Shown here: positions 10,268 to 52,658 of the stretch, piece by piece
How positions within the stretch are numbered: the stretch's first letter is position 1
Layout: the number at the start of each line of letters is the position of its first letter
Origin: Candidatus Bathyarchaeota archaeon
Lineage (GTDB): Archaea; Thermoproteota; Bathyarchaeia; Bathyarchaeales; Bathycorpusculaceae
Assembly: GCA_963707955.1 (NCBI GenBank)
Contig: OY970176.1
Location: forward strand, 512,001-576,000
Length of the DNA: 64,000 nucleotides
Reading direction: 5' to 3'
Notes under the pieces: generated by a model
What the model was told of the DNA's origin: nothing
Database searches by the model: none
What the model saw: only the letters and a program-made list of their open reading frames with translations
Position numbers and translations under genes: made by a program

Positions 10268-10579
10268 GAGTGCAATTCATAATATGATTCCATCGCTCTA
10301 GTGGAATCAAGGTAATCAAAGAATTGTTGCCTTTTCATCAAGAAATAGCAGATCCCCCGGAGAAATCGCTGTTGTCACAATGGTCTTGGAAGTTCTCACA
10401 AAATCAAAGCTCAATTTAATAACTCCCTCCTCCGGCTCTTAGTAAGCGCGGATCAAGATGTTTTTGATTTCACGCCACATTAGAGCAACGAATAGCGCGC
10501 GCTGCAAATATGATGAAGCCAGAATAATGGACTCTTATTCCAGCTGTAGAGAACTGATGCCACTTTCAAGGTTCACAAA

Positions 10580-11494
10580 TCACGAAGGGCCTTCGGGTTT
10601 GAGAACCTTTGCTCCTTTACGAACACGCTGCATGAAAAGGGGAATAAGCTTCTCAGCGATCAAAAAAGCGCACGTGCCATAGATGACGCCGCCGATCACG
10701 TCTATTACATAATGCTCGCCAAGATAGACTGCACTGAACCAAACCCCAATGGGAAACACGATTATGGGTAGGGCTTTCGCTTTCTTTATCTTAAATGCGA
10801 AAAGTGAAATCAGCCAAGGATACATTGCGTGAAGACTAGGAAATGCCGCATTTGGGTTAGCTGAAACGAAATCGATGAGGGTGCGATAGAAAGGGATACC
10901 GATGTTTTTATCCACTTGCAACAAAATTCGAGTTACTCCAGTCACCGCGGACCATGGAGGCGCAACCGGATATATCAGAAATGTTACCAGGGCGCTGTAG
11001 GTGCCGATCGCAAGGACTAGGACGTATTTCCCAAAGTTTTCGGGACGGTACTTCCACAGCAAAAAGCCGAAAACTGCTGGAGCTATAAAATGCAAAGAAT
11101 AAAAAAAGGCACAAAGATAGTCCAAAAAGGGAGTTCTACAAAACTGTTGAAGCACAAGAGTCGGGATCGAACCGAACAGTCGCAACTCAAGATTTATAGG
11201 CTCGCTAACGTGCACAGTCAGTGCAAGGCTGCCAACCAAGCCATTCATGGCTTCATAACTTAAGAACAACGACACAAACGGAAACCAGTCTTTTACGAAA
11301 CGGCGAGTCCACTTGTTATACGCAGCGTAAACGAAGAAACATAGCGCTATCAACTCAGGCCCTGGAAGAACGCCATATGCTAGACAGAAAGCACTTAATA
11401 CCAACAAATAAACAGCAGGCAACGCAACCCCTAGGATGCGCGAAGAACGATAGTCGGACTTCGCCTCAAGCTTTGATCCAACTTCGTCTACCAT
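10580..11494 (-). CDS. PAP2-superfamily membrane phosphatase/phosphotransferase (AUR1-like)
   Basis: PVAPPW, AAFPSLH, HYVIDVIGG motifs; multiple TM. Confidence 0.88.
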   Translation of the reverse strand: MVDEVGSKLEAKSDYRSSRILGVALPAVYLLVLSAFCLAYGVLPGPELIALCFFVYAAYNKWTRRFVKDWFPFVSLFLSYEAMNGLVGSLALTVHVSEPINLELRLFGSIPTLVLQQFCRTPFLDYLCAFFYSLHFIAPAVFGFLLWKYRPENFGKYVLVLAIGTYSALVTFLIYPVAPPWSAVTGVTRILLQVDKNIGIPFYRTLIDFVSANPNAAFPSLHAMYPWLISLFAFKIKKAKALPIIVFPIGVWFSAVYLGEHYVIDVIGGVIYGTCAFLIAEKLIPLFMQRVRKGAKVLKPEGPS

Positions 11495-11551
11495 AGGTAT
11501 TCCCTTACCCTGCTGTAGCGCACGGGTTATAATGCGTCCTCAAGAACTGTG

Positions 11552-11586
11552 TATTATTTAACGTTTTTCAGAATTAAAGCCAATTC
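11552..11586 (-). promoter_or_regulatory. Same promoter motif (copy 3), ahead of the PAP2 gene
   Basis: tattatttaacgtttttcagaattaaagccaattc. Confidence 0.5.
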
Positions 11587-12172
11587 TATTTCTAGTCTAT
11601 CCATCGCCGAGACGATTGATGCGTACGAAGTCCGCAAAAATCAACCCGTGAGTGCTTATTTGCATGGCGATGGTAACGCCAGAGACCCATGCGAGGACAT
11701 GAAGAAGTGGTCTTCAGAGATGAGGAGGCGACATTCTATTGTTATCGATCCAAATGGAGCAAGCTTTAAGGATGAAAGACTCGATATTTTTCTGATGGAA
11801 ACGGATATCCTGTGAGAGACTTGAGGGTTGATGACGCCGAGAGTCGCCATGCAAACGCATGATGTAACCAAGATATTCAAGTCGAAGGTCAGAAGTCTGG
11901 AGCATCGAAGTTCCATCTTTGAGCGCAGAACGCGCGTCTATTCAGATGGTTCTGCCTGAAATCTTAACATTAGCCCTCACGTGTGCCATATTGTAGCCGT
12001 TAGGTTATTTCATCTATTCATGGTGCCTAAGAACTGCCAGAAAGAATGGAACATTATCATGGTTCTAAGCCTTTTCTGCAGATCTGATCAATGCCGCCTT
12101 ATGGCATGGTGGCTTGCGCTTAGAGAAATCCGTGAAAATGACGCAAAAAAGTAGGAATTCGCATCTTGGAAA

Positions 12173-12272
12173 TGGTAGCCCGGGAGAGATTCGAACTCTC
12201 GTCGGCGGGTCCAAAGCCCGCTATGCTTGTCCACTACAATCGGCGGAAAGGTGTTCTTCCCTCCACCGGGCT
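12173..12272 (-). tRNA. tRNA-Gln(TTG) with a 24-nt BHB intron at position 10/11 (intron 12239-12262)
   Basis: Acceptor AGCCCGG/CCGGGCT, encoded CCA, anticodon arm GCGGG-CTTTGGA-CCCGC, T arm GAGAG-TTCGAAT-CTCTC; removing the intron restores D stem GTGT/GCAT. Confidence 0.92.
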
Positions 12273-12433: not shown

Positions 12434-13305
12434 GCGCGCTAGCGGGTTCCTAAATTCGCTTTTTCAGGCGTGACGAGTTGGTTCATGTCCTACAGACGAT
12501 ACTTCGCGCTTTAATAGTCACACAGTCATCCACGGATCAACATAGCCCTATATAAAACGTGTTCGCGAATGAATTTGGGAACGAGGTCCTGTGAATGGCT
12601 TCCTACGCCGCGTTGCTGACGGCACTCATTTTTTAAAGGTTAAGCGTGCGAAAAATCCAAAATTGCATTAGAAGTGAATGATACCTAGACTGGTCATCGA
12701 GCGGGTTTGGGTCTGTATCTGTTTCTTTCGGAGAAGAAGTCGATCACTCTGGATTCTGTCAAGAACTTTGCATAGTGTTTTGCTTGGGCAGGAATGACGT
12801 ATTCATCGCCTTTCTCGCAGATTCTGGGCTTGCCTTCGATGATCAATTCCATTTTTCCTTCTATCATGATTCCCCATTGAGAATAGTCATGAGTGTGCTC
12901 TGGCACTTTTGCGGATGATTCCATTTCGAAGAAGACCAGCTGCTGCTTCTCCCCCTGCAGGATCCATGCTCTGACTCCTTTGAGTTGAATGTCTGCTTCT
13001 GGTAGACGCGTTATGACCTCAGGAAAACCTTGCCCACGTCTACCCTTAGCATCGTCCAAACGTTCCACCCGCAGGCTGAACAAACACAGGAAGAAGTATT
13101 AATGTTTGCGCTCCTGAGCGCCATCTAGATCGTGAGATTCTATCTTCTAAAATGCGTTGTCGCTACAGCGAGCGGTGCGCGCTTTTGCTTGCATTACCTG
13201 GTTCAAGGGTGATAGCGTGAACTATGACGGTGGCAACTTCATGTGGATCGCAAAACCTAACTCTAAGACGCTAGAAAAAGGGAATTTGGGAACCCGCTAG
13301 CGCGC
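12434..13305. mobile_element. Non-autonomous TIR element carrying a cupin gene
   Basis: 38-bp inverted repeats at 12434-12471 and 13268-13305 (34/38 identical), each ending in GCGCGC; no transposase. Confidence 0.7.
12694..13083 (-). CDS. Cupin domain protein
   Basis: VPEHTHDYSQWG and IPAQAKH cupin motifs. Confidence 0.85.
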   Translation of the reverse strand: MFSLRVERLDDAKGRRGQGFPEVITRLPEADIQLKGVRAWILQGEKQQLVFFEMESSAKVPEHTHDYSQWGIMIEGKMELIIEGKPRICEKGDEYVIPAQAKHYAKFLTESRVIDFFSERNRYRPKPAR

Positions 13306-19251: not shown

Positions 19252-20427
19252 TTGCGGATTCCTAACTTACTCAAAGTCATTTACGCCCCGCACAAAGCAG
19301 TCAAAGAAATAGCTGCAAACCCGACGTACTGGGGTCCCCTCCTCATAGTGGTTCTTTTTGTCGCAGCAAACGTGGGGTTCGTTTACATAAGCTCATCAAA
19401 AACCTACTTTGAGCAGACATTGCCCAACGGTGTGAACCATGATGTATGGACTGAGAACGAGACGTTCTGGACATCGAATAATGCCACCGTCAGTGAGAGC
19501 AGTGATGTTATCCCTGTAAGCTACCCCGCCAACGTGCGCCAATACTATGGAACCAAGAGCATAGTTTTTTCGATAAACAGCAGTGAGATCTGGATGGAGT
19601 TGAGTAACATAGGGCCCATCAACTGCTCCAGTCCAGATGGCTACGACAAACTTGATTTCAGAGTGAAACAGCTCAGTCCACAGAACAGCACGGTCAACGC
19701 CACCATTGACCTCTTCTCAACAAGCCCTTCTGACTCTTTTTATTACGATCTGACTCAAAACTTCTCCAGCTCTACCTTTAATGAATGGAACAATCTGACG
19801 GACATCCAGCTCGGTTCAGGATGGAACAAAGTCAATGCCGGTGCAGACTGGAGCAACATCACTGGTTTGAAGCTGGACCTCACATGGCCAGCCGTTTCGA
19901 ACATATCCTTGGTGGTGTATGGTCTGTTTTTCCACGGTCCGTACGCATCTTCCCTAGAGAGCGCGGGCAGCTCTTACGTGTTTAGCGTTGCTTTTTCATA
20001 CGCTTTGCAGTTTGTCATCACATGGGTTATCCTCGGAGGAATACTCTACGTGCTTTCAAAGGCGCTAGGTGCAAAGCTCGTCTGGAAACCGTTGTTAATC
20101 GTGATCGGATGCGTCCTTATCACCATGGTCGTCCAAGCGGTTGTGAACGTTGCCGCTTGGGGAACTCTGTCTAACGTCTACGTTCCTTTTGCGCTGGAGG
20201 GTGGCGTCCCTAGCGAAGGTCAAGCTGCTTTAAACGCGATTTCAAATCAGACCTATTTTGTTTCTCTGACGGCAACGGTCATTCAGATAGCAACGTACGT
20301 CTGGACCATAGCACTAGCCGGACTCGCCGTTCACCAGCTCGGCAAGTTTGGTTGGACCAAGAGCTTTCTGGCAGCAACAGTGGCTTACTTCGTAACTCTG
20401 TTCATAGCAAGCTTCTTGTTCGCATAA
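19252..20427 (+). CDS. Yip1-like membrane protein with a large extracellular insert
   Basis: N-terminal TM, N-x-S/T-rich loop, several C-terminal TMs. Confidence 0.7.
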   Translation: MRIPNLLKVIYAPHKAVKEIAANPTYWGPLLIVVLFVAANVGFVYISSSKTYFEQTLPNGVNHDVWTENETFWTSNNATVSESSDVIPVSYPANVRQYYGTKSIVFSINSSEIWMELSNIGPINCSSPDGYDKLDFRVKQLSPQNSTVNATIDLFSTSPSDSFYYDLTQNFSSSTFNEWNNLTDIQLGSGWNKVNAGADWSNITGLKLDLTWPAVSNISLVVYGLFFHGPYASSLESAGSSYVFSVAFSYALQFVITWVILGGILYVLSKALGAKLVWKPLLIVIGCVLITMVVQAVVNVAAWGTLSNVYVPFALEGGVPSEGQAALNAISNQTYFVSLTATVIQIATYVWTIALAGLAVHQLGKFGWTKSFLAATVAYFVTLFIASFLFA

Positions 20428-20595
20428 GAACCGTGAAGCAGGCAACTTGAAAAAAAGAAGCCCCGCTTTTTGTTTCTTGTGGACTAGCCTACCATTAGTC
20501 AAGCTTCATTCAGCCGCAACGACAGGGCACTATTATCGGTAATCCCCAGACGCGTCCCATCACAATAACTCCAGTGTTTTCGATTGAAAAGACAA

Positions 20596-20698
20596 TGGTT
20601 CCGATTGTTTTCGCAATGCCTGTCTGCTTAGTCTTCGGCCCTTGCCTCCAAGGAAGACTTCCAAGCTGAACGCTGCTGAAGCGGTGCGTTATGAATAG
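20596..20698 (+). pseudogene. Relic of an ABC permease C-terminus
   Basis: RKTSKLNAAEAVRYE* matches the usual MacB-type permease end; upstream sequence decayed. Confidence 0.5.
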
Positions 20699-20906
20699 CG
20701 CGCATGCTTGTTCCTAAATTCCCAGATTCAGCTCAGGAGGAAGGCATGACGTTTTCAGATGTCTATGGTTGCCGTCACGGTTCAGCTGAGTGCTTTCGTG
20801 CTCACACCCTTCCCCCCGGGTATCCTATATGATCCAAATATGATTCAAGAGCAAAATGAGTAGCACAAGCCACTTCCCAAAAGAACGCAGGAACATGCTA
20901 GCGCGC
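20698..20906. mobile_element. MITE-like element with GCGCGC-anchored imperfect TIRs
   Basis: Left GCGCGCATGCTTGTTCCTAAATT; right end reverse-complemented GCGCGCTAGCATGTTCCT. Confidence 0.5.
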
Positions 20907-21326: not shown

Positions 21327-21341
21327 ATAGAGTGGACAAGC

Positions 21342-21632: not shown

Positions 21633-21683
21633 TCTCATGATGGACGAGTCGGTTTCAACCAGCAATCGCGAGAGGTGAGGTGA

Positions 21684-21974: not shown

Positions 21975-22316
21975 GCCAGCTGAGAAAAGAACAAAATGAT
22001 TCCTTCCACACTCATAGAATCATCCGCCAAGATCAACCATTCCGAAGCCATGCCACATAAAACAGATAGGTTCTTGCCCATCAAAAACCGCTGCTTAGAG
22101 TACAGCCTTGAAACAACGTCAGCGCATGTCCTGTAACGTATAAGATTCAAGCATGTCAGTGGCGTTTTCAGCATCATCACTGTCGAGAATGCAACTGTCT
22201 TGTCGATAGAAGTGTGAGGAAGAACTTTGGTTATTAGACAATGTTTCTATGCGCCCGGCATGATGAAGGGGGGGTATGGGTCCTACGACTGGCTTTTAGC
22301 GCGCGCCTGGACGCAA

Positions 22317-23097: not shown

Positions 23098-23477
23098 GTC
23101 ATCCTTGAGTTTCATTCTTCTCGCCTACGTCACTCTATTCAACATCTTGGGAATTAAACTTTCCCAAATTAGTGCATAAACAGGGGAACCGGCGCGCGCT
23201 GGTTCTGGGTATTGCCGAGCCCTATGTAAGCACCAAATATGAGGTTGTGTTTTTGTGTCGCCGGTATTACTGTACACGGTGAATTCCGTCGGATCTATTC
23301 CATTCCACTTAGGGACTATTACAGAAATCCATTCAAGAAGTTTAGCGCGCACGGGGTAAACTTTACCCCCAAACCCAAACAGTGACTACGACGGTGACGA
23401 CGACTAATATTTAGCGCGCGCTAAAAAATCTTATATCTAAGTAATTGTTCCTTTCTGAGTAGAAGTTGTGATTATTC

Positions 23478-24458: not shown

Positions 24459-24767
24459 AACTAATAATTCTTTTTTTATATCGAAAATTTTAGGCGCGCG
24501 CGTGCTACAGTTTCGACACTAGATTTTTAAGTCTCAGTAATTACGGTTATTCATGTTAGAAGGCATTAAATTGCCGAAAGAAAAGCGGAAATCATATTAA
24601 ACTTTCTTGTGGACCGCCTGTTATCGCAAGTTCAACTCCTTTTGCAGTGAACAAGTATGTTAAACAGACGGTAACTTCGTCTCAGCACGCGCTGACGATG
24701 ACAGTGAATCAAACAGCAGAGCTTATATGAAGTCATCCGAATAGTGAACATCAAGGTGAAAGGCCAA

Positions 24768-26974: not shown

Positions 26975-27531
26975 CTTGTCCGCCCAGAGCAGAGACTTAG
27001 AAGACTCGTTTGGCAACGATCCCCATTCTGACTTCGATGACGAGAGAGGCGCGCACTAGGTTTGCAGCACACGCGTAGTCAAGAGTGTAAATCTCTTCAA
27101 TTGAAAGAATATACAGGTACCTTATGTTTTCAAGGTCCTAGTTTTCTTCTTTTTGCAGCACAAACCCGTCTTTTTCAACGTTGTCAATTGAAAAAAGCAA
27201 AAAATACTTCAAACGGGCAAGTATCAATCGATGAGTGTGGTGGATGGTCTTTCTCCCTTCTCCTTTCATTCTACCATCCTCCTCATGAAACATGTTCTAT
27301 GCATACTAAGTCCCAAAGCATCTCCGAAAATGGAAAAGGGCAAGAAATGGATTCCAAGCAGTTCTACGGGTTCTAGCGCGTGCTTGCTTGTTAATGCTCG
27401 CGTTGGGCTCATTATGGATTTTCGAATCAAGACGAAGACTGAGAGTTGATGTTTTTGTCGCTTGTGGGTTGATGCTTCAGCTCTTGCCGTGGTTGAGCGC
27501 GTTCTGATCTGGTTCATGAGTTCAGCGGTGC

Positions 27532-30990: not shown

Positions 30991-33105
30991 GTGAAAAAAT
31001 TGCCTCAGACTTACGCTTGTCGCAAATGCGGTAAGATCTACTCTTCAGAAGAGTATGAGAACAGTCGATTCTGCACCGAATGCGGAACATACCTGATGTC
31101 CGAAAGCATGGCTTCTGAGCATTTCAGAGCGAGCCGTCAACGTGTGAAAAACAATATTCCGAAGAGAAGCATGCTTCCTGAAAACTATCAGATACGAAAG
31201 GAACAGATGGAGTTTGTCCAAGAGGCAGTGAAAGCGCTCAAAAGCAAAGAGGTTTTTGTGGGGAGTGCTCCATGTGGAGTAGGCAAATCTCTTGCGTCAT
31301 TGCTTGCTGTTTTGCCAGAGCTCGAAGAAAACAGACTGATGATCTGCTTCAGAACGAGAAGCCAGTTGCACATTTACCTTAAAGAGCTAAGAGCACTCTC
31401 AAGTGGCCTTTCCGCTGTCTCCTTCTTTAGCAAACAAGACATGTGTCCTTTGAAGACAAAGGGCGACCTCTCATACGTTGACTTTTTTGAAGAGTGCAAA
31501 AGACTGAAAGATAGCTGCGAATCTTCTACTAAGCCCTACTGCAAATTCTATATGAACATTTTAAGAGGGAAAAAGGAAGCCGAAGAATTGGCTCTAGATT
31601 GCGCCCAAAGAATTCTTGCGCCAGAAGAAACGGTTGAGATCATGGCTAGACGAGGATTCTGTGCTCACGAAGCCTTGAAGAGAATTCTCCCTAAGGCGAA
31701 CGTTTTTCTTGGAACATACCACTACACCTTCGACCCCAGAATCAGGGAATCAATACTGAAGAACTTCGGAGTCGGTCTCTCAAAGGTCTTCTTAATCGTG
31801 GACGAGGCTCACAATCTTCCAACCTTCGCCAGAGAATTGCTTTCTGATCAATTGACAGAGGGTACAGTAGAAAGAGCGCAAAAGGAGACTGAAAATTTCG
31901 AGCATGAGTCACTTGGATCGGTCAGAGAACATCTAAACGTTCTTTTGGAAGAGGTTTTTCAGCACGCTCAGCAGACTTTGAAAGACGAAGATCTCAGACG
32001 GCTTAACCCTCAAGAACTCAGTGACCTGTTTCTGGCTCACAATAGCATATCTGGTCTTGAGGCTGCAGCAACACTTCTAGAATATGGCGAATTCGTGAAA
32101 GAGAAGCGACTTGAGTCTGGTTCTGAGAGAATTTCAAGTTACAATTATCGAATTGGCACCTTCATGGAGAGCTTCTTCAAAAATGTTGGGCCGAAATATA
32201 CGCACCTGATCGAAAGAGACCACAAGAACAGGATTGCTTTGGAGGTCAGATGCTTCGACGGAAGAGAAGTCGTTGATCCCGTTCTCAGAGGAGCACAAGG
32301 AGCCATCCTCATGAGCGGCTTTCTGTCTCCTCCAACCGTTTACAGGGACTTGATGCTCTACGAGCCAGATAATGCTCGTCTGAAAGAGTTTGACCCTCCT
32401 TTTCCAGCTGAGAACAGACTTATCCTAGCTGCTGAGGACGTGTCGTCAGAATTCAAGAGGAGAACCGACTTGATGCTTGAGAAGTGGAAAAGTTACGTTG
32501 AAGCTATATCCGACGCCAGTCGAGGCAACATAGCCATCTTCTTCACGAGCTACAGACTAATGCATAAAGTCGTGTCACTGATAAAGACGAGCAGAAGGAC
32601 AACTGTGGAAGAGCCGAATATGAAGAGAAACGAAGTGATTGAGAAGCTAGCAAGTTCGTCCAATAACATTCTGTACGGAGTCATGGGAGCCAAACTGAGC
32701 GAGGGAATAGACTACCCTCACAACATCCTAAAGTGTGTCGTAGCCATTGGATTGCCGTATGCAACGTGGGACGCTTACCAAGAATCACTGATAGGTTATC
32801 TTGAACAACAGTTCCCAGGAAACGGGAGAACTTATGCTTACTTGACACCGGCCATACTGCGGCTGGTTCAGGCCTGTGGACGCGTCCACAGATCAGCGGA
32901 AGACAGAGGGTGCATAGTGATATTGGATGAACGGATTACTCAGCCTCACATCAAACGGCAACTTCCAAGCTATTACCAGAAAGAGATGATTGCAGTGAAA
33001 AGCCCGTCTGATTGTGCTGAGCGAATAAAGAGTTTTTGGAACATGCCTCACGCAAGGAAGCAGATTGGGCTATGTAACCAAGCGCGCGTAGATGACGCAG
33101 ACTAA
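30991..33105 (+). CDS. XPD/Rad3-family Fe-S DNA helicase with N-terminal zinc ribbon
   Basis: APCGVGKS, four spaced Cys in the Fe-S region, VDEAHNL, SEGIDY, QACGRVHR. Confidence 0.9.
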   Translation: MKKLPQTYACRKCGKIYSSEEYENSRFCTECGTYLMSESMASEHFRASRQRVKNNIPKRSMLPENYQIRKEQMEFVQEAVKALKSKEVFVGSAPCGVGKSLASLLAVLPELEENRLMICFRTRSQLHIYLKELRALSSGLSAVSFFSKQDMCPLKTKGDLSYVDFFEECKRLKDSCESSTKPYCKFYMNILRGKKEAEELALDCAQRILAPEETVEIMARRGFCAHEALKRILPKANVFLGTYHYTFDPRIRESILKNFGVGLSKVFLIVDEAHNLPTFARELLSDQLTEGTVERAQKETENFEHESLGSVREHLNVLLEEVFQHAQQTLKDEDLRRLNPQELSDLFLAHNSISGLEAAATLLEYGEFVKEKRLESGSERISSYNYRIGTFMESFFKNVGPKYTHLIERDHKNRIALEVRCFDGREVVDPVLRGAQGAILMSGFLSPPTVYRDLMLYEPDNARLKEFDPPFPAENRLILAAEDVSSEFKRRTDLMLEKWKSYVEAISDASRGNIAIFFTSYRLMHKVVSLIKTSRRTTVEEPNMKRNEVIEKLASSSNNILYGVMGAKLSEGIDYPHNILKCVVAIGLPYATWDAYQESLIGYLEQQFPGNGRTYAYLTPAILRLVQACGRVHRSAEDRGCIVILDERITQPHIKRQLPSYYQKEMIAVKSPSDCAERIKSFWNMPHARKQIGLCNQARVDDAD

Positions 33106-33192: not shown

Positions 33193-34215
33193 ATGGAAAT
33201 CGAGCAACTAATAAGAAAACTTCCGAAAGCAGAGCAGCACATTCACATCGTAGGCTCAACTAGACCCGAAACCCTACTGTGGCTTGCGGAAGATGGCGGC
33301 CTGGACAAACCCTTCAAAACTTCAAAGGATGTCCAAAACTTTTTCAGGTTCACGAGCTTTCCTCAGTTCATAAACGTATACTGCACCGTCGTTGATTGCA
33401 TCACAAAAGAGAATCAATTCGAACGCATCACCTACGAAATGCTGAAGTCAGAGACTCACTGCAACGTTCAATACGTGGAGGCCAGCTTCTCACCGCTTGA
33501 TCATGTGCTTCGGGGCCTTGATTACGGAAAAATGCTCAACGCCACAAACAGAGGCATAGACCGTGCAAGAATGGACTTCCAAATAGAATGCAATCTTAGA
33601 ATCGACCTCGTCCGAAACTATGGGCCAGAAAAGGGAATGGCGGTCCTAGACTGGGTAGAAAGCAAGGACGATAACATCATATCAGTTGACTTAGGAGGAA
33701 GTGAGGAAAGATTCCCTGCAAAGCCATACAAGTCGGTGTATCAAAGAGCAAGAAAGATGGGCCTCCATCTGGTTGCTCACGCAGGAGAGGCCGCTGGACC
33801 AGACAGCATCTGGCAAGCCGTTACCGAACTCGAAGTTGAACGCATAGGTCATGGAGTGACCGCAATTCACGAAGCAAAACTGATGGAACATCTCAAGAAG
33901 CGGAACATCACGATCGAAGCATGCCCCACAAGTAACGTAAGAACTCGAGTGGTCCATACAATCAAAAATCATCCCATTAAAGTCTTTAACGACCTCGGCT
34001 TAGCACTCACAGTGAACACGGATGATCCATCAATTTTCGCAACTGACATGAACAATGAATATCTGCAGCTTCACCGTCAACTCGGCTTCTCGCTCCAAGA
34101 ACTCTTCAAGTTCAGTCTCAACGCCGTAAACTCATCCTTTCTTCCAGAAAAATCCAAATCCAAGATGCGCAAATCTTTCACGAAGACTTACAATCGCATA
34201 TTGAACGAAGAATAG
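33193..34215 (+). CDS. add: Adenosine/adenine deaminase
   Basis: PKAEQHIH, AHAGE, RIGHG, CPTSN, NTDDP. Confidence 0.9.
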   Translation: MEIEQLIRKLPKAEQHIHIVGSTRPETLLWLAEDGGLDKPFKTSKDVQNFFRFTSFPQFINVYCTVVDCITKENQFERITYEMLKSETHCNVQYVEASFSPLDHVLRGLDYGKMLNATNRGIDRARMDFQIECNLRIDLVRNYGPEKGMAVLDWVESKDDNIISVDLGGSEERFPAKPYKSVYQRARKMGLHLVAHAGEAAGPDSIWQAVTELEVERIGHGVTAIHEAKLMEHLKKRNITIEACPTSNVRTRVVHTIKNHPIKVFNDLGLALTVNTDDPSIFATDMNNEYLQLHRQLGFSLQELFKFSLNAVNSSFLPEKSKSKMRKSFTKTYNRILNEE

Positions 34216-34288
34216 CGCGCGCTTGAAAAATATCGAGATAGATGCTAAGAAGGTGTTTTCACGCACTATGTGGAAAGAAAAAAAGCAG

Positions 34289-37739: not shown

Positions 37740-37790
37740 ATGTTGTCAAAAGCGCGCGCTTGTTTACGAGGCACGTTTGCCTTGAATCAG

Positions 37791-41757: not shown

Positions 41758-42803
41758 TAGAAATAACCTCTAACATCCATAGCCTCCGCTACCTCCTCCC
41801 AAACAGCAACACCATTCTCCACTAAATCCTCATGAGACTCAACCCTAAAATCAGGCGACTTCCTATCAACACACAAACACCTAGAACCAAGATAGCGAAC
41901 TTTTACCAACCGACGACCACAATACGGACAAACAGACTTCTTAGCAACATACTTAACCTTCAACTTACGATACGAACAAACACCAAACCAAGTCACAACA
42001 CCAGAACGCTTACGGTCAGTCCTCACCGAAGCATGTGAAAGCTGATACTTAGCTGTGTCAAAAATAGACCTACGCTCCCCCGCAACCCCGCGCCCCTCGT
42101 TGTCCACGGCAACCTTAACTATCCAACCGTCACGCTTGAAACACTCCCTTGTGCGACCCTCAAAACCGTGACACTCAGAACAAAACTGTTTCGTACAAGA
42201 ACGGCAGCGATAACCGCCCGCAACAAAACCTAAGATATGGAAATGAGGGCTGAAGAACCAATACCCCGTCGCCCTATTCAAACGAAAGGCATGGCGAATC
42301 ACGCAACCCCCGATGACGCCACGCCTGCCCAAGGCCTCAAAGAGCAACCTATACAACTCGTCAAGACTCAAACTATAACGCTCGGGCGGAACGGATGCAA
42401 CGATGTGTTCACACTTGCCAAACTGCTTTTCAGCCTCCAACGAACGAAACTCGATACTACGAGCCTCGCGATACAACGAACTCCTAAAGCATATGGGGCA
42501 CGTCAGCTTATGGCAACGATAGAAAACTGGATGCTGATAGACCTGCTCCCGCCATTTCTCACCCTGCAACTGCAGCGGTAGTTCATGCCCTTCGACATTG
42601 AGACAACCCCAACGACCCCGATACTTACCGCAGTTCTCGTTAGTCACAGGCCCATGACCGACGAGTTGGTTAACCCCACAATTACCGTAACTATCATTTA
42701 CAAACTTTTGATACTCTTCATCGTCAAACTCTTCATTATCAGGAAAATCCACATTGGCCAAGGACTGACGGTCAGTCACTAAGAACCCCTCCGTTTGAAG
42801 CAT
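41757..42803 (-). CDS. rep: Rolling-circle replication initiator (HUH endonuclease) with zinc-finger inserts
   Basis: Motif I HIVAS, motif II SPHFHILG, motif III AKYQLSH; several Cys clusters; start may be GTG at 42779. Confidence 0.8.
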   Translation of the reverse strand: MLQTEGFLVTDRQSLANVDFPDNEEFDDEEYQKFVNDSYGNCGVNQLVGHGPVTNENCGKYRGRWGCLNVEGHELPLQLQGEKWREQVYQHPVFYRCHKLTCPICFRSSLYREARSIEFRSLEAEKQFGKCEHIVASVPPERYSLSLDELYRLLFEALGRRGVIGGCVIRHAFRLNRATGYWFFSPHFHILGFVAGGYRCRSCTKQFCSECHGFEGRTRECFKRDGWIVKVAVDNEGRGVAGERRSIFDTAKYQLSHASVRTDRKRSGVVTWFGVCSYRKLKVKYVAKKSVCPYCGRRLVKVRYLGSRCLCVDRKSPDFRVESHEDLVENGVAVWEEVAEAMDVRGYF

Positions 42804-42910
42804 GCACCAAACGGACAGCGATACACACCAATCTCAACAGTCAAAATCGCATGAGCACAGTAAGCACCAACAAAACAGGACGACCCCTGATTCCCCACCC
42901 GCTCAGCCAT
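42779..42910 (-). CDS. 43-aa Cys-containing ORF upstream of Rep (not in ORF track)
   Basis: MAERVGNQGSSCFVGAYCAHAILTVEIGVYRCPFGACFKRRGS; GGAGG upstream; stop overlaps a GTG in the Rep frame. Confidence 0.5.
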   Translation of the reverse strand: MAERVGNQGSSCFVGAYCAHAILTVEIGVYRCPFGACFKRRGS

Positions 42911-43150
42911 TCAAAAAGACCTCCAACGCAATCGGGAAAGGCTAAGAAAACAGCCAATCCCAACGCCCGCGAGCATTACGCGGAATATGCCATGGGCTAA
43001 CGCATCAAGCCTTTCAAACATCAATTGGTATGTTTTAGAGCTTAACACATCAACCACACCATCAAGCTCGCCGTTACCCTAATATAAATCTTGGGACACC
43101 TTAGTCATAGTGCCTTGCTACCCGATTTGCGCCGATAGAGGAATGGAAAC

Positions 43151-43984
43151 ATGAAGAACAGAGACATCACAAAAGACGAAATCAATAGAATAACAGAGGA
43201 ATGTCAACCCCGAGAAAAAGCATTCTTCACTGTCATGAGGCAGTCGGGACTAACACCACACGCTATAAAGCAACTCAAAATAGGAAACTTGGAAAGAATT
43301 ATGTATCCAAATACGCCGATACCATGCAAAGTAAGCATACCGTATGAAAAATCCCCAACTTTCATAGGAGAAGAGGCCACCAAATACCTCAAACAATACT
43401 TAGCAACCAGAACCCGCGCGAGAGAGAACCTGACATCACAAAGTCTACTATTCACGATACAAAATAACCCCAAAAAAGAAATCAACACAAAAGACGAAAG
43501 CAGAGCATTCAGACGAGCCGCACAAAAACTAAAAAAGAAAAGAAAAATCAACTACGAAATCAGAAGAGGAAAACCAAGCGAATTACGGCTTTACAGCCTC
43601 ATAGAATTCTACAAAAAAAACACCAACGACTACCGAAAGGAACTAGACAACGACACCATACGCAAGAACGATGAATTCTGCAGAAACCTATATGAAAAAT
43701 TAGCCATGCCTTCCTTAGAAATCGAACCGCCATCACCAATAGAAATACACCAACTAAGAAAGGAAAATCAAGAGCTGAAAGAACAATTTATAAAATTAGA
43801 AAAATCCATGGGACCAGTAACGGCACTGTATTATGAACTCGCAGGAATGATTCCTGCCACTATGTTTCCAGAATTAGAGCCCGTCCCAACAGAAAATGAG
43901 GACGAGACGCACATAGACCAACAACGACACACCGTAACACACAAAAGCGCGCGCGCTAAACCTAGTAAACCAATCCAACATTAA
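43151..43984 (+). CDS. Catalytically degenerate tyrosine-recombinase-like protein with coiled-coil tail
   Basis: QSGLT in place of SGxR, TFIGEEA..YLKQYL..R, LYSLI in place of HxxR. Confidence 0.65.
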   Translation: MKNRDITKDEINRITEECQPREKAFFTVMRQSGLTPHAIKQLKIGNLERIMYPNTPIPCKVSIPYEKSPTFIGEEATKYLKQYLATRTRARENLTSQSLLFTIQNNPKKEINTKDESRAFRRAAQKLKKKRKINYEIRRGKPSELRLYSLIEFYKKNTNDYRKELDNDTIRKNDEFCRNLYEKLAMPSLEIEPPSPIEIHQLRKENQELKEQFIKLEKSMGPVTALYYELAGMIPATMFPELEPVPTENEDETHIDQQRHTVTHKSARAKPSKPIQH

Positions 43985-44282
43985 AAAGAAACCAAGGTTT
44001 CTTTGCCCGCCAATCATCCTTTGTATGATGAAAAAATTTATTGTCTCGAAGAATCCCAAAGCATCTTGCCCGCCATTCGGCTCTCTCAACATAAATTTTT
44101 CGCTTTTCTCTCCCCTTGAAAAGCGTCTTACATGAAAAAACGACCCCAACGAAATCATGAAGCATCATGAACATAAAGGAACGCAAGAAAATGAAAACAC
44201 TAAAAAGAACCCAACAAGAAATAAGGAATGCCCAACTCTGGGCAGAAATTCAGCTCCCAAAACTTTTAGGAGAAAAGAAAGC

Positions 44283-44696
44283 ATGAACACCAACAAAGAC
44301 ACGACAGAAAACAATGAACAATCAACAACAACAACTAACAATAAAACAACCTCCGTAGAATTACTAAGGTTGAGCGAAGGTTGGTATACTAAACCACTAC
44401 AGCCACCGTTTTCCCGATATAACCACCAAATCGAGACACAAGTGGAAGCTATACGACGACCCCAACCACCTGTCAACTACCTAGACCTCATAATAAACAC
44501 TTGCATCAAAGCAACCAACGAAGGAAAAGCAGAAAACACCATTTCAGCCTTTTTCCACAGACTAAGGCAACTAAGCAGAGAAGCAGACCTAATGAAGTCC
44601 GAAGAAGTGAAGACCGCAATAGCAAAGGCAAAGAACAACAAAACAAAGAAACAAACGAAAAACAACTCAACGCCCGTTGGCTTGTCCCTAAATTAA
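44283..44696 (+). pseudogene. Integrase N-part fused in frame to a truncated Int-C of a related earlier element
   Basis: WYTKPL...AIRRPQP...KATNEGKAENTISAF.HRL..LSR.ADLM is homologous to the 38586 protein but breaks off near 44670. Confidence 0.75.
44378..44463 (-). repeat. tRNA-Pro 5' half (positions 1-33) with a different 50-nt BHB intron (44397-44446); right attachment site
   Basis: GGGGTCGTCGTATAGCT-[intron]-TGGTTTAGTATACCAACCT; central helix ATAG/CTGT with 3-nt bulges CTT and AGT. Confidence 0.82.
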
Positions 44697-44830
44697 CCGC
44701 ACGTGCAATGTTTGACTGCAACATCACACTAACGCATTTTTATAAACCGCAGTTATCTGTTAGTGAAGAGAGGTAGGTTTATGAGATTTTATGCTTGCGC
44801 TAATTTAAAAAGCCAATCGCGGAAAATATC

Positions 44831-45505
44831 ATGAGTTCTCAAATAGACTTGTACCGAGACATCCACAAGGGCCAACGCCGTAGGTTCTTCAACATTGCAA
44901 CTCAAGCGGGAATCCTCGACTACACCGACCCGAAAGCCCTTGATTCACTGTACGATGAACTCTATTCCTTCAGGGAACACATGCGCCTTCACGCTCATTT
45001 GGAAGAGAAATTCATTCACACTGTTCTGTCTCAAAGAGTTCCAGGCGGCGCCACGCAACTTGAAGAGGATCACCGCGTTATTCGTCAAGAATTCGATGAC
45101 CTAATCGCGCATTTCGATGGCATGAGAACCAAACCTGTTGATTTCGAAAAACGTGGAGAGCTCGCCCTCGAATTCTACCGAGCGTGGAGCCGCTTCATTG
45201 CATTCTACTTTATGCACATCAACAGAGAAGAAGAACAGATCATGCCCGTCCTGTGGAAGCTCTGCACAGTCGAAGAGCTTGCTGAAACACATAAATTGAT
45301 GATCACTGACCAAAAACAGGAAGAACTCGTCGAAGACTTCGAGATGATACTTCCAAACGCGAATTTGCAGGAACGAGTTGAGATTCTCGGAACACTTCAA
45401 GTTTTAACGTCACCTGAGGCATACCAAGAGTTCCTCAAGCTTGCGGAACGCATTCTCGAACCAAACGATTGGGCAAATCTGAAGACAGAACTCGGACTTA
45501 CATAG
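44831..45505 (+). CDS. Hemerythrin/HHE domain protein
   Basis: IHKG.R, HAHLEE, EDH, HINREEE..MP. Confidence 0.82.
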   Translation: MSSQIDLYRDIHKGQRRRFFNIATQAGILDYTDPKALDSLYDELYSFREHMRLHAHLEEKFIHTVLSQRVPGGATQLEEDHRVIRQEFDDLIAHFDGMRTKPVDFEKRGELALEFYRAWSRFIAFYFMHINREEEQIMPVLWKLCTVEELAETHKLMITDQKQEELVEDFEMILPNANLQERVEILGTLQVLTSPEAYQEFLKLAERILEPNDWANLKTELGLT

Positions 45506-45582
45506 ATCTGCTTGTATAGCGTGCAGCTTTTCTCATCCGAGCACTATTTAGCGCGCGCCTAACGCTTGCCGTGATGAGAGCA

Positions 45583-46068
45583 TTAAGGTTTGAGCCTATT
45601 CATCATCTCGTTTGCGAAGGCTCTTGCCCGCTCCAATCTTGCTGCATCGGGCTGACCTTGACTGGCTCGCACGGATGCACGGGCTTGTGGATGAATTCGC
45701 ACGAAAGTTTTGACCAGTCGAGAGGCTTGTACTTGGCAGTCAAAAATGCCAATAATATTAGCCCCCACAGCAGCGTCCTTGAATTTCTGAATCCATCCTT
45801 GCAAAGGCGGTGCATCCTCGGGCGCCATGTGAGTGAGAAAGAGCGCTATTGCTTTATCCTCGACATGTGTTTCTAAGAAGGCCTTAGCTTGTCTATTTGG
45901 ACCAGATGCATATATTGGAAACCCTAGAAATGAGAGGTCGTAGCCTTCAAGTGATGTGACGTTTTCGATTCGCCTAATCTCTTTTGGTTTAGGAATCGCA
46001 TCATAAATGGCTTCGGCAACTTTCTTTGTATTTCCAGTCCGAGGCATGTAAGCAACTAAGACTTTCAC
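45583..46068 (-). CDS. Flavodoxin-like protein
   Basis: TGNTKKVAEAI, YDLSFLGFPI, ALFLTH, GQPD...LERARAFA. Confidence 0.85.
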   Translation of the reverse strand: MKVLVAYMPRTGNTKKVAEAIYDAIPKPKEIRRIENVTSLEGYDLSFLGFPIYASGPNRQAKAFLETHVEDKAIALFLTHMAPEDAPPLQGWIQKFKDAAVGANIIGIFDCQVQASRLVKTFVRIHPQARASVRASQGQPDAARLERARAFANEMMNRLKP

Positions 46069-46304
46069 GTATAATTCCCGATGCACTACTGATTGGGCAG
46101 TATTTATAAAGCTAGTAGCGCGCGCCACTACAAAATAACAGCTTACGGATTCGCTAAAGCGCGCGCGCTACCATGATGTGGCACTCGCTTACGCTCGTGC
46201 TCCGCTAAAACGCCTTCCAAAACCAACCAACCACGAAAGCGCGCGCGCTACACACCAAAAAAGGGGAAAGTAGAGGCAACTAAAAAGCCTAACTCGCGCG
46301 CTTA

Positions 46305-46796
46305 TCAGCTTCTCTTCACTAACTCTTTTGCTAAATTTGAGAATGAAAGAAAACCAGAATCTTCATTAAGATTCACTAAGAAACTTGCCGAATACGTCAC
46401 TTCCCAAAACTCATTCTTTTCAAGTTTTCTTTTAAATTCTGCATAAGAAGAGTAGTCTTCATGAAGCGAAACAACCAAGTGCGAAGACTTCAAGCCTAAC
46501 CCTCTTTCAAACATTAGAATATTTGAGAAAGTGCCTAGCGCCCTTCCAAACTCTTTCGAATCAGGTTCCTTAACCATGGCAAGAAAGGTTATAGCCAAGA
46601 TTTCAAACCCTAACTTGCGGAAGTCTGGAATTGCGGTATATTCTCTTATGACCTTTTCTTTTTCGAGTCTAGCCCTTAATCTTGTGACTGTCGGTTGGGA
46701 AACGCCTACAGACCTAGCTAGTTCTCTGTCACTTCTTCGACTGTCCTTCATAAGCTCACTGATTAGTTTTGATTCAACAGTTTTCAACGTAAGCAC
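46305..46796 (-). CDS. Lrp/AsnC family transcriptional regulator
   Basis: SRRSDRELARSVGVSQPTVTR; paralog of 138..635. Confidence 0.88.
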   Translation of the reverse strand: MLTLKTVESKLISELMKDSRRSDRELARSVGVSQPTVTRLRARLEKEKVIREYTAIPDFRKLGFEILAITFLAMVKEPDSKEFGRALGTFSNILMFERGLGLKSSHLVVSLHEDYSSYAEFKRKLEKNEFWEVTYSASFLVNLNEDSGFLSFSNLAKELVKRS

Positions 46797-47060
46797 GTTC
46801 CTAAGATAAACTCTTGAATAGAATATAACATTGTTTTTAAGAATTGTTGCAGAACTACGACGAACTTCAAAATTTATAAAAAAGAAGGGAAAATGGCTAG
46901 AGAGCGAAAACCAAAGGCCAGAAAATAAGGGTTAATACCCAGTTTTACACCGCCAATTGGAATTTCGCCTAGTCAATCAACGTGCCAACATGTTTTCCCT
47001 TGACGACCATCAAAACGTTTTCGATGTTGAACCCTGAATTCTCTCTTCTCATACTTCAAA

Positions 47061-49297: not shown

Positions 49298-49597
49298 CGT
49301 GCTTGTGCAGGACGTGCTTGTCTATTTGGTACACCAAGACGAACAGACTCTGATCTGAAGGGAAAAGCTGCAGATCTGGATCAGATACTTCCAAATGAGA
49401 TTCTTCTCCCTTGGGGGTTCAGCGAGAGAGCCCGCGCGCTCTTGACTCATACTTGAACTTGGTCAAACCGTAATCAGCGAAGACGCTGCCGGTTCGTGAA
49501 TGAGGCATTGATGAGAATTTCATTCCACGGTACAGGGAGGCTAGGGTTAAATAAACGTGGGTCCTCACCGATACTCGCTAGGTTCGCGGTGTTCATC

Positions 49598-51034: not shown

Positions 51035-51198
51035 TGCATCGACGAGCATGCTAACGCTGCCTCACAGTGCCAGCGACCCTCCGTAAGAAGCTCCCCACGG
51101 CACGTGGAAATCCTTCCGAATTCTACAACAACCTTATATGTCCACATTTAATCAATGGCAAACAAGCGGTCGTCTCAAGCTGAAAAGAAGGAGTCGAT

Positions 51199-52404
51199 GT
51201 GATCAAAGACCTTTCAGCCTTTTACTCCAAGAATGCTCTCAACATGAAACGTTCCGAGATCCGCGAACTTTTGAAAGTGACCCGGCGACCCGACATGATC
51301 TCCTTCGCTGGCGGACTTCCCTCTCCAGACACTTTTCCCGTCAAAGACCTCGAAGACATAGCTTGCCATATACTGAGAGAAAAAGGAGCCACGGCCCTTC
51401 AGTATGGACCCACCGAGGGAGAATTGGCTCTGCGTGAAGAAATTGCCAAATGGATTTCACGCGAAAAACCCGGCATCAAACCCGAAAACATCCTTGTCAC
51501 ATCAGGGTCGCAACAGGGTTTAGACATCATCTCCAAAGTCTTCCTGGACCCGAAGGACACGGTAATAGTCGAGTTGCCAACGTACATCGGCGGTCTACAA
51601 GCCTTCACAGCATACAGGGCCAAGATGGTCGGTGTCCTCCAAGACGATCAAGGAATGCGGATGGACCTCCTGGAAAAAACTTTGACCAGACTGGCAAAGA
51701 GGAACAAGAAACAGAAATTCATCTACGTCGTCCCAGACTTTCAGAATCCTTCCGGAGTCACGATGAGCTTGGAAAGACGCAGGAGACTCTTGGAATTGGC
51801 TTACGAGTACGAGCTTCCTGTCATTGAAGACAGCCCATACAGAGACCTCAGATTCACAGGCGAAAGCGTTCCAGCCATTTTCAGCCTGGACAAAGAGAGT
51901 CAAGTCATAGTCGTAGGAACCTTCTCCAAGCTGCTCTGTCCAGGACTAAGGTTGGCTTGGATAATGGCCCCCGCCGAGTGGATGGACAGGATGGTCGTCG
52001 CCAAACAGAGCATGGACCTCTGCTCGCCCACGTTTACTCAGCTCATAGCGGCCGAGTACATGAAACGCGGGTTGCTGCCGAAGCAGGTTGAGAGTATCCG
52101 CAGACTGTATGCAAGAAAGCGTCAAGTGATGCTGGAAGCCCTGCAGAAATACATGCCAAAGGGTGTGGCATGGACCAAGCCGGAAGGCGGACTGTTTCTA
52201 TGGGTCAAACTTCCGAAGAGAATGAGCACTGACGACCTCTTTCCAAAGGCAATCGAAAATGGAGTGGTCTACGTAAAAGGCTCAGCCTTTCATTGCAACG
52301 GCAAAGGCCAAAACACCATGAGAATAAACTTCTCATACCCATCAGAACAGCAGATAGAAGAAGGCATCAAACGCCTGGCCAAAATGATCAAAGAGAACAA
52401 TTGA
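51199..52404 (+). CDS. PLP-dependent class I aminotransferase (2-aminoadipate/aromatic type)
   Basis: ISFAGGLP, PDFQNPSG, IEDSPY, GTFSKLLCPGLRLAW. Confidence 0.92.
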   Translation: MIKDLSAFYSKNALNMKRSEIRELLKVTRRPDMISFAGGLPSPDTFPVKDLEDIACHILREKGATALQYGPTEGELALREEIAKWISREKPGIKPENILVTSGSQQGLDIISKVFLDPKDTVIVELPTYIGGLQAFTAYRAKMVGVLQDDQGMRMDLLEKTLTRLAKRNKKQKFIYVVPDFQNPSGVTMSLERRRRLLELAYEYELPVIEDSPYRDLRFTGESVPAIFSLDKESQVIVVGTFSKLLCPGLRLAWIMAPAEWMDRMVVAKQSMDLCSPTFTQLIAAEYMKRGLLPKQVESIRRLYARKRQVMLEALQKYMPKGVAWTKPEGGLFLWVKLPKRMSTDDLFPKAIENGVVYVKGSAFHCNGKGQNTMRINFSYPSEQQIEEGIKRLAKMIKENN

Positions 52405-52476
52405 GAAAAAAGAGGCAGAAATAGAGAACGCCCGCTTTCAAAATCTTGTCCAAACTCTAACCCAAATCTTCTTCAA

Positions 52477-52658
52477 CCGCGCCGCCTTGTCCCTTTATCA
52501 TGCGTGCGCACTTGAACAGCCCGCACAGCTCCGCATCCAACCTCAAAATCTTCAATGTTTTCAACGATGCTTGTCGACTGTATATGCAAAATGTATATGC
52601 TTTTTGTATATGCTTTTACACACGCGCTATCAGCGAATTTAGGGACAAGCCAGCGCGC
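52477..52658. mobile_element. MITE-like element with GCGCGC-anchored imperfect TIRs
   Basis: Left CGCGCCGCCTTGTCCCTTTAT; right end reverse-complemented GCGCGCTGGCTTGTCCCTAAATTC; three internal GTATATGC repeats. Confidence 0.5.

Follow-up and report, generated by a model that had tools for sequence, protein, structure and literature searches.

The DNA analyzed here (referred to as the window) is a stretch of 64,000 nucleotides that corresponds to bases 512001 to 576000 of the genome of a Candidatus Bathyarchaeota archaeon (G000), a single contig of 2,346,764 bp with a G+C content of 47.9%. The gene content of the window is archaeal (TFB, SUI1, a family-B DNA polymerase or PolB, XPD and a RadA-like protein), and the relatives of its PolB in the species collection are all metagenome-assembled genomes (MAGs) of Bathyarchaeia from peat, bog, soil and sediment. 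Its spacers are dotted with short alternating-GC palindromes, hereafter tracts, each defined as a maximal (GC)n or (CG)n run with n of at least 3. These tracts are enriched between genes throughout the genome, lie at rearrangement breakpoints far above chance, bound a gene cassette found in several contexts and have newly appeared at the joints of independent deletions.

GCGCGC occurs 44 times in the window (overlaps counted) compared with 10.88 ± 3.58 times in dinucleotide-preserving shuffles, and 0 of 100 such shuffles reached that number (the maximum was 23). There are 33 maximal tracts of at least 6 nt, of which, according to our gene model, 22 are intergenic, 1 lies across a stop codon and 10 are found in open reading frames (ORFs), three of these last within 30 nt of the ORF end (33082, 43947 and 46118). 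A first-pass annotation, made from the letters alone, had listed 23 copies of GCGCGC as boundary marks of accessory genes; all 23 are real alternating-GC tracts, with offsets of 0 to 4 nt (for instance, 10494, 34214 and 37751 become 10495, 34215 and 37752), and 23410 is indeed the start of a 16-bp palindrome. Beyond these, tracts are located at 1214, 3097, 9507, 11931, 28843, 29985, 39830, 43415, 49008 and 63347. The sites are as follows:

3097..3102: GCGCGC, intergenic
10495..10502: GCGCGCGC, intergenic, 78 nt beyond the stop of the PAP2 gene
11931..11936: CGCGCG, within a segment of approximately 480 bp missing from G007
12434..13305: inverted-repeat unit with GCGCGC plus 20-nt inverted repeats (GCGCGCTAGCGGGTTCCTAAATTC ... 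GAATTTGGGAACCCGCTAGCGCGC), 26 bp, of the miniature inverted-repeat transposable element (MITE) type; internal GCGCGC at 13177
20698..20906: MITE-like element, 212-bp, GCGCGC at both tips, one of at least 24 copies
22299..22306: GCGCGCGC, 11 nt beyond the stop of the LigD-phosphoesterase gene
23192..23350: variable spacer with GCGCGCGC at 23192 and GCGCGC at 23345
23410..23425: TTTAGCGCGCGCTAAA, 16-bp palindrome with its core at 23414-23421, 56 nt upstream of the ferritin-like gene
24494..24501: GCGCGCGC, 36 nt beyond the stop of the ferritin-like gene
27049..27054: GCGCGC, filler TAGTGCGCGC on the minus strand, joint downstream of PolB
33082..33087: GCGCGC (GCGCGCGTAG), in the read-through tail of the XPD ORF
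34215..34222: GCGCGCGC, overlapping the TAG stop of the adenosine deaminase gene
37752..37759: GCGCGCGC, between the convergent DUF2284 and DinB genes
43947..43956: (GC)5, 28 nt before the end of ORF 43151-43984, within a likely integrated element
45551..45558: GCGCGCGC, between the convergent hemerythrin and flavodoxin genes
46118..46300: cluster of four tracts (46118, GCGCGCGC; 46159, (GC)5; 46239, (GC)5; 46295, CGCGCG) in the spacer between the flavodoxin and AsnC-type regulator genes
49433..49438: CGCGCG, intergenic, with permease and pyridine-nucleotide oxidoreductase genes on either side
52653..52658: GCGCGC, tip of a solo MITE-type terminus (GAATTTAGGGACAAGCCAGCGCGC)
63347..63352: GCGCGC, intergenic

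Three genes lie between two tracts, as had been proposed: the ferritin-like gene (23478-24458, tracts at 23414 and 24494), adenosine deaminase (33175-34215, tracts at 33082 and 34215) and flavodoxin (45583-46128, tracts at 45551 and 46118). Alignment with relatives revealed changes at many of the sites. The tract at 10495 is itself the right breakpoint of a synteny junction with the sister species G007 (distance 0), the 16-bp palindrome at 23410 is decayed in both G001 (GCGCGTAC) and G007 (CGCGCGCC), and at 22299 G007 is without these 10 nt and G001 carries a 2.6-kb insert. The spacer at 23192-23350 is replaced by unrelated sequence in G001 and G007, the G001 version having two GCGCGCGC of its own, and the site in G007 orthologous to the MITE copy at 20698-20906 has neither the element nor the motif. 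In the close relatives L001 and L005, breakpoints relative to the window fall at the tracts at 24494, 27049, 33082 and 34215; beside 24494, L001 has 158 extra bp and L005 a second tract together with other sequence, while at 34215 the homology with L005 stops, window positions 34216-38515 being missing from it. The tract at 46295 abuts a duplicated block (46313-46832, equivalent to G000 1122136-1121616 at 91%). The unit at 12434-13305 encloses a cupin gene (12694-13083), that is, a cellular gene within MITE-like ends, and is also found in G007 and G001 with decayed tips. A contig from a different assembler, from a run that is possibly of the source sample, covers 20816-36574 of the window with 4 differences, and the tracts located there are therefore not artefacts of the G000 assembly. 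The motif is present too in MAGs from many separate studies.

In the complete genome GCGCGC was found 1453 times, ranking first among the 64 palindromic hexamers by Markov observed/expected ratio, while the most frequent 8-mer is GCGCGCGC, with 464 copies, and the most frequent 10-mer AGCGCGCGCT, with 114. The genome contains 989 tracts (570 of 6 nt, 374 of 8 nt and 45 of 10 nt), none longer than 11 nt. The intergenic observed/expected ratios were 17.7 for (GC)3, 122 for (GC)4 and 224 for (GC)5, against a ratio of 0.90 for (GC)3 in coding DNA, which bears out the intergenic enrichment expected by the first-pass annotation. The remaining dinucleotide repeats (n of 3 or 4) gave ratios of only 0.6 to 3, and general slippage is thereby ruled out as an explanation. 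As many as 78% of the GCGCGC copies and 87% of the GCGCGCGC copies lie outside ORFs or across their ends, compared to 19.7% of the genome, an approximate split since our own ORF-based gene model (2187 ORFs, 80.3% coding) is crude and non-curated.

At least one tract is present in 461 of the 1845 spacers, with 1.47 tracts per kb in tandem spacers, 1.91 in convergent ones and 1.41 in divergent ones. The distance to the stop codon is 20 nt or less in 87 of 539 cases, and the distances measured genome-wide revealed no fixed spacing from start codons. Beyond the core there is only a weak flank preference, for (T)A on the left and T(A) on the right. The TA flank was counted 176 times on the left and 179 on the right, and on both sides 33 times versus 31.9 expected if the two were independent; this independence fits a tract composed of two half-joints. 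Since the flanks of 943 of the 989 tracts are unique (the other 46 have a flank belonging to a family of at least three), the tracts do not constitute an ordinary repeat family. Along the chromosome, tracts of at least 8 nt are clumped (variance-to-mean ratio of approximately 3), with peaks at 380-400 kb, 800-880 kb and 1660-1700 kb. At 845-876 kb, single genes are set apart by about 55 tracts over 31 kb, and two tyrosine recombinase genes adjoin this region.

All 11 genomes of the genus are enriched for the motif. AGCGCGCGCT was counted 114 times in G000 and 7 to 92 times in its ten congeners, versus 0 to 4 times for the reversed control word. Its distribution elsewhere is patchy, with 63 copies in G039, 53 in G046, 23 in G055, 16 in G043 and 11 in G041, and 0 or 1 in most other relatives. 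Individual tracts are poorly conserved: within aligned blocks, 14 of 49 G000 tracts and 16 of 36 G007 tracts are kept, and many of the changes are transitions at CpG steps (judged by eye and uncounted). In G000, the intergenic density of tracts was 0.86 per kb in DNA that aligns with G007 and 2.70 per kb in DNA that does not.

To relate tracts to breakpoints, we compared G000 and G007 over 280 kb of synteny, accepting a tract within 10 nt of a breakpoint (the end of a BLAST block, which only approximates the true one) and using a random-intergenic null of 0.044. A tract was found at this distance at 21 of the 48 block junctions (binomial P = 8e-6) and, considering G000 alone, at 16 of 96 breakpoints (binomial P = 4.5e-6). 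The same was true of 104 of the 478 intergenic ends of repeat blocks within the genome, again against 0.044. The ends of indels and duplications thus fall at the motif far above chance, as had been anticipated. Other rearrangements recorded are an 8.2-kb inversion relative to G007:C2 (G000 505871-514050, of which window 1-2050 is part), with no GC tract at the breakpoint on the window side, and a block of approximately 330 bp (G000 361029-361358) that is inverted in G008 and G009 with respect to G000. A 6-kb tandem duplication with 99.95% identity (G000 2096997-2108976), containing methylmalonyl-CoA mutase and carboxylase subunit genes, is either real or an assembly effect.

The appearance of new tracts at joints is demonstrated by four loci. 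Downstream of PolB (27049), a segment of 3.6 to 4 kb is carried by L005, L094, L091 and L001. The window allele reads flank-TAGTGCGCGC-flank, with the entire segment missing, while L002 keeps the first 55 nt of the segment, followed by AGCGCGCT and by the right flank, entered about 21 nt further in. As these two joints differ, at least one of them must be a deletion from the full state, with a joint tract that the full allele does not have. At a second locus (E2, G000 422960), ChrB-like and MFS transporter genes are intact in G001 and G007. In G000, 1645 bp are gone through cuts inside both genes, with ACGCGCGCTG at the joint, and in G010 the region is also gone, with endpoints different from those of G000 and GCGCGC at the joint; the gene remnants fix the polarity here. 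At E1 (G000 404061), about 490 bp are kept in G001 and G007; G000 shows GCGC added onto a pre-existing TAGCGC, and G010 retains 45 nt of the segment, then CGCGCGCG and then unrelated DNA. At the fourth (E3), a 765-bp segment present in G000, G001, G010 and G003 is missing in G007, where (CG)5 stands at the joint, and within the segment of G001 a 9-nt CGCGCGCGC replaces TTTTGC(T). Three of the loci thus display independent deletions with different endpoints, some of them cutting genes, each with a tract that is absent at that position from the intact allele. A comparable exchange was seen at 33082, where L001, L005, L091 and L094 have a 1.1-kb SPFH/Band-7 gene and the window has GCGCGCGTAG; the more distant L096 shows only the XPD stop, 7 nt and the deaminase start, and the window and the L001 group have in common 17 nt and about 100 nt of extra flank, with the SPFH gene or GCGCGCGTAG set between these flanks.

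A tally by hand of simple indels of at least 50 bp among G000, G001 and G007 gave about 32 distinct events (one row positive by script, G000 398755, was counted as negative, as its printed joint has no tract). The shorter allele bears a perfect joint tract in 9 of them and a one-mismatch tract in 3 more, and in most of these motif-associated indels the longer allele has no tract at its ends. The polarity of events is unrooted except where gene remnants or several genomes decide it.

Many paralogous blocks of about the size of a gene also have their ends at tracts. The genes within them are ordinary ones, encoding Alba, TBP, an SSB-like protein, GT4 and GT2 glycosyltransferases, GNAT acetyltransferases, flavodoxin and YhbY/CRM, and no transposase was found in them. 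The clearest case is a 585-bp unit with a YhbY/CRM-domain gene, bounded tract to tract in five contexts and four genomes. G000 has it twice with 100% identity (copy A, 715099-715683; copy B, 1421017-1421601). The unit has the same ends in G001:C28, where the right flank is that of copy B and the left one a tRNA 3' end, in G007:C4, where both flanks are different, and in G010:C50, which is orthologous to copy A. At that last site G010 reads X-GCGCGCGC-Y and G000 reads X-CGCGCG-246 nt-GCGCGCGC-Y. These cassettes with identical ends, together with one insert between two tracts, seem to show that existing tracts are also used again.

The only clear repeat family involved is MITE-like, of approximately 205 bp and at least 24 copies, with tips GCGCGC(A/T)(T/A)GC(T/G)TGTTCCT(A/G)AATTC. 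MITE-type features (terminal inverted repeats and many similar copies) are restricted to this family, which accounts for at most 46 of the 989 tracts. No target-site duplication is apparent outside the GCGCGC tips. Two copies shared by G000 and G007 are missing in G001, which has GCGTGCGCA and GCGCACGC at these places; these 8-nt one-mismatch tracts fit a 4-bp duplication of a (GC)4 target, and another empty site (G007, above) is tract-less. The terminal inverted repeat GCKTGTTCCTRAATTC was counted 54 times in G000, 72 in G001, 22 in G007 and 21 in G039. It occurs 0 or 1 times in the motif-rich G009, G004, G008, G046 and G055, and the family was rejected as the source of the motif.

Candidate enzymes were compared with motif counts across the relatives, and no enzyme or pathway for the motif emerged among those tested. 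Ku (PF02735), found in 12 of the 61 relatives searched, is present in G000 and 7 of its 10 congeners, yet it occurs as well in four motif-poor genomes (G016, G038, G044 and G052), and five motif-rich ones (G039, G046, G043, G041 and G055) gave no match. C5 methyltransferase (PF00145) and Y1 transposase (PF01797) had no match in G000, while 9 and 6 of 14 control genomes, respectively, did match. The PolX palm domain (PF14792) was found nowhere in the genus, and reverse transcriptase (PF00078) in 1 of 61 genomes, the motif-poor G044. A fusion of an N4/N6 methylase with an Mrr-like nuclease is limited within the genus to G000 and G009, with no copy in G001 or G007; its paralogues in G000 lie at 1265660-1267033 and 993006-994184, one of them adjoining an IS240/IS6-type DDE transposase gene. 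The Xer-like integrase beside the dense region has close orthologues in G043, G041, G009, G039 and G059, and none in the motif-rich G001 and G007. The window also encodes a stand-alone LigD-type 3'-phosphoesterase (22317-22757, minus strand), which, with a Ku homologue at G000 958105-958644, represents parts of an archaeal end-joining system.

The independence of the two half-flanks, the fillers of 4 to 10 nt and the deletions that cut into genes suggest that tracts are made or brought in at joining. Our preferred interpretation, for which we would put the chances at about even, is that the (GC)3-5 tracts, which frequently read (T)A-GCGCGCGC-T(A), are lineage-specific joints of illegitimate break-and-rejoin events, written or carried in and then re-used. 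Upon loss, gain or replacement of DNA, a short alternating-GC palindrome would be written at the joint or, alternatively, might arrive on the end of the incoming piece. Such scars would build up where they are tolerated, between genes and in the flexible genome, and would decay fast through point mutation. About 1000 identical, self-complementary, GC-rich tracts could then act as preferred sites of later breakage, and likewise of microhomology-directed or site-directed joining. Because they would be preferred places for both, a gene situated between two of them could behave as a cassette, being lost, copied or relocated in either orientation. What we infer is the creation of the tract at joining, the way in which it comes about and its later use as microhomology or fragile site. 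A more ambitious version, possible although we would not expect it to hold, is that one Bathyarchaeia lineage possesses a break-repair or gene-shuffling system which writes a constant (GC)n at each joint and re-uses some 1000 portable sites to remove, copy and relocate single genes, as an integrase-less, genome-wide counterpart of integron cassettes. It would draw on an as yet undescribed enzyme activity, such as the synthesis of poly(dG-dC) at DNA ends, either template-independent or by slippage.

The first-pass annotation had regarded the motif as a short recombination or insertion site that lets single genes move as cassettes, loosely like HIP1 or attC. The mobility of cassettes is supported by the YhbY unit, bounded tract to tract in its five contexts, but the motif is not simply a pre-existing att-like target, given that deletion joints carry tracts that the intact alleles lack and that no integrase, transposase or methylase tracks the motif. 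The idea is only partly supported because we read the tracts as written at, or carried to, joints and as recombination points only afterwards. The likeness to HIP1 and attC is useful as an analogy but does not extend to membership.

Several facts weigh against the break-and-rejoin interpretation. About two-thirds of the simple indels are tract-less, as is a deletion variant at the PolB site in L162, so that a process leaving tracts at joints would not be the sole route. At 33082 deletion and insertion are equally parsimonious, and polarity in general is decided by gene remnants and by how many genomes hold a segment rather than by a rooted tree. A pre-existing target would instead fit the 246-nt insert that lies between two tracts and the two MITE empty sites in G001 with their 8-nt one-mismatch tracts. 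None of the tested enzymes accounts for the motif, and Ku, the obvious end-joining factor, does not track it. The contigs of runs X1 to X4 over window positions 20001-40000 contained neither joints at tracts nor circular forms, although contigs cannot reveal rare forms; loose contig ends were found there only at the MITE and, in X3, near 27088 and 27291. To this should be added the crude gene model and the approximate nature of breakpoints taken from BLAST block ends.

Among the other explanations, a pre-existing site of a dedicated recombinase or nuclease-ligase, with circles or fragments bounded by two sites being excised and inserted afresh at any further such site in the manner of a minimal attC, is possible but doubtful. 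It would account for the identical ends of the YhbY cassette across five contexts, for the pair of tracts around the 246-nt insert at a place where G010 has a single tract, for the many duplicated gene blocks that end at tracts and for the region of single genes at 845-876 kb, with its some 55 tracts beside two tyrosine recombinase genes; the two MITE empty sites, being 8-nt near-tracts that fit a 4-bp duplication of a (GC)4 target, also agree with it. However, new tracts missing from the intact allele appear at deletion joints, some of them inside genes, most motif-associated indels have filled alleles without tracts at their ends, and the empty site of the window MITE in G007 is tract-less. 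Neither G001 nor G007, both motif-rich, has a close orthologue of the adjacent integrase, a Y1 transposase is missing from G000, the observed/expected ratio of 0.90 in coding DNA gives no sign of avoidance of a cut site and, to our knowledge, recombinase cores are far longer than 6 to 10 bp. We consider it improbable that the tracts are instead a selected boundary element (the site of a dimeric chromatin or regulatory protein, a Z-DNA supercoil sink, a 3'-end or insulator signal, or a DNA uptake tag) whose link to breakpoints is secondary. The 87 of 539 stop distances of 20 nt or less, the highest density being in convergent spacers, and the maintenance of this class of motif across the entire genus and in scattered other genera speak for such an element, as does the status of alternating GC as the best Z-DNA former, stated in PMC4060949. 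Against it, the sites are poorly conserved (14 of 49 and 16 of 36), tracts are threefold denser in non-conserved intergenic DNA, they keep no fixed distance to start codons and they are found within gene remnants and as insertions of 4 to 10 nt at joints.

It is more improbable still that solo tracts are the excision footprints of transposons or MITEs with GCGCGC at the tips of their inverted repeats. The MITE-like family does have GCGCGC at both tips in its at least 24 copies of about 205 bp, and the two copies missing in G001 correspond there to GCGTGCGCA and GCGCACGC, but repeat families of any kind reach only 46 of the 989 tracts, five motif-rich genomes have the terminal inverted repeat of this family 0 or 1 times, G000 showed no full-length element or transposase with such ends, and tracts arise also at deletions of ordinary genes. 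Hardly credible, finally, is an origin like that of HIP1, in which a methyltransferase with biased mismatch repair, or restriction-modification, would raise the frequency of the palindrome by point substitution. The motif is, like HIP1 in cyanobacteria, a lineage-limited GC-rich octameric palindrome and the commonest 8-mer, and many of its losses are transitions at CpG steps (by eye, uncounted). Yet G000 has no C5 methyltransferase, the methylase-Mrr fusions are not common to G001 and G007, coding DNA is not enriched in the motif (0.90), unlike the genes of cyanobacteria, which are rich in HIP1, and tracts arise as insertions at joints.

Several known systems resemble this motif in part. HIP1 (GCGATCGC) is likewise a lineage-limited, GC-rich octameric palindrome with unique flanks that is the most abundant 8-mer of cyanobacterial genomes, in which it is abundant within genes. 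Gupta et al. 1993 and Robinson et al. 1995 are said to have found it at deletion endpoints. HIP1 is tied to CGATCG methylation, according to PMC6604393 and PMC6105098. In contrast, 87% of the 8-mers here are intergenic, copies arise at rearrangement joints and G000 has no C5 methylase; GCGATCGC itself has only 18 copies in G000. Repetitive extragenic palindromes (REP) and the related BIME and REPIN exist in hundreds of copies, often past stop codons or between convergent genes, and are linked to rearrangements and used as insertion targets. REPs are imperfect hairpins of 20 to 40 nt with a conserved head, mobilised by a Y1 transposase gene (RAYT). PMC3116915 describes the bacterial REP-type elements as extragenic palindromes. 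The tracts are extragenic and iterated like them but differ in a core of 6 to 10 nt, in their unique flanks and in the lack of a Y1 transposase in G000.

The attC sites of integrons are structured, far longer than these tracts and recombined by IntI, and their cassettes are co-oriented next to attI. PMC9668308 reports integrons in 75 archaeal MAGs of nine phyla, and archaeal integrons with canonical attC sites are thus on record. Single-gene units bounded by palindromes, a cassette in several contexts and a dense, array-like region are common to integrons and to our case. Unlike attC, the sites described here are of 6 to 10 bp, spread over the genome, found with both gene orientations and also located at deletion joints inside genes. 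A scan of the window with Rfam gathering thresholds returned only a tRNA fragment, the inclusion of an attC model in Rfam being unverified, and close orthologues of the two tyrosine recombinases beside 845-876 kb are missing from the motif-rich G001 and G007. The GC clusters of yeast mitochondria and the PstI palindromes of Neurospora mitochondria are short GC-rich palindromes that have invaded intergenic DNA richer in AT and lie beside genes, with TAG or TA adjacent, and that serve as recombination or excision points. These are, however, organellar, several-fold longer and of several sequence classes, and not simple (GC)n.

Alternating GC, which forms Z-DNA, has reportedly been linked by Wang and Vasquez to breaks and deletions, and all 989 tracts are alternating G-C runs of at least 6 nt, as in non-B fragile sequences of the Z-DNA type. 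Patterns of this kind, prone to form Z-DNA, are normally suppressed in prokaryotes, as stated in PMC4060949. While at Z-DNA fragile sites the tract is the cause of breakage and is selected against, here there is an intergenic enrichment of up to 224-fold and tracts arise de novo at joints. Fillers of nonhomologous end joining (NHEJ) and N-nucleotide addition provide another parallel, as the joints contain nucleotides absent from both parents, and Ku and a LigD-type phosphoesterase are encoded. Known end-joining fillers are short and variable, in contrast to the constant alternating-GC palindrome of 4 to 10 nt found here, and the presence of Ku does not track the motif. A DNA uptake sequence would be kept at orthologous places in the core genome, an expectation to which the poor conservation of tracts at orthologous positions and their concentration in non-conserved DNA do not correspond. 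In the literature on iterated palindromes in archaea and Bathyarchaeia, taken as main texts as distinct from supplementary tables (e.g., those of PMC4060949), no description of the motif was found.

The tracts provide a simple sequence mark of places where genes have been lost, gained, copied or replaced, carried by about one-third of the simple indels that separate sister species. In sediments, peat and soil, Bathyarchaeia rank among the most abundant uncultured archaea, and little is understood of how their gene content changes. If the tract is made at joining, it would be a readable scar by which rearrangements could be counted and dated in metagenomes, and a pointer to an undescribed activity in end joining or DNA polymerisation. 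Should it be a recognition site, no cassette recombination site known would be nearly as short. Either way, the tracts add to HIP1 and REP a third domain-level example of iterated palindromes shaping genome plasticity. Their enrichment also runs counter to the suppression of Z-DNA-prone words that is the general rule in prokaryotes.

Some additional features of the window were recorded. A promoter-like recurrent word, GGG(G/A)TAAA(C/A)TTTACCCC followed by CCAAACCC repeats, is located at 23351-23380 and again at G000 2033861; GATAAAACTTTA has 14 copies genome-wide, and variable segments often begin with the word. To the left of the cupin unit, a partial tRNA match (12184-12240, minus strand; Rfam RF00005, 32.2 bits, model positions 9-63 of 71) is probably the remnant of a tRNA, such as an old integration site; ARAGORN predicted no tRNA in the window. 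Two regions are likely integrated elements. One, at 38490-47000, has a tyrosine recombinase gene (38490-39551), many ORFs without a Pfam match and a strong negative GC skew, and the other, at 56067-62541, has an integrase gene (56067-57314), a D5_N/DUF5906 primase-helicase gene (60442-62541) and a G+C content of 41%.

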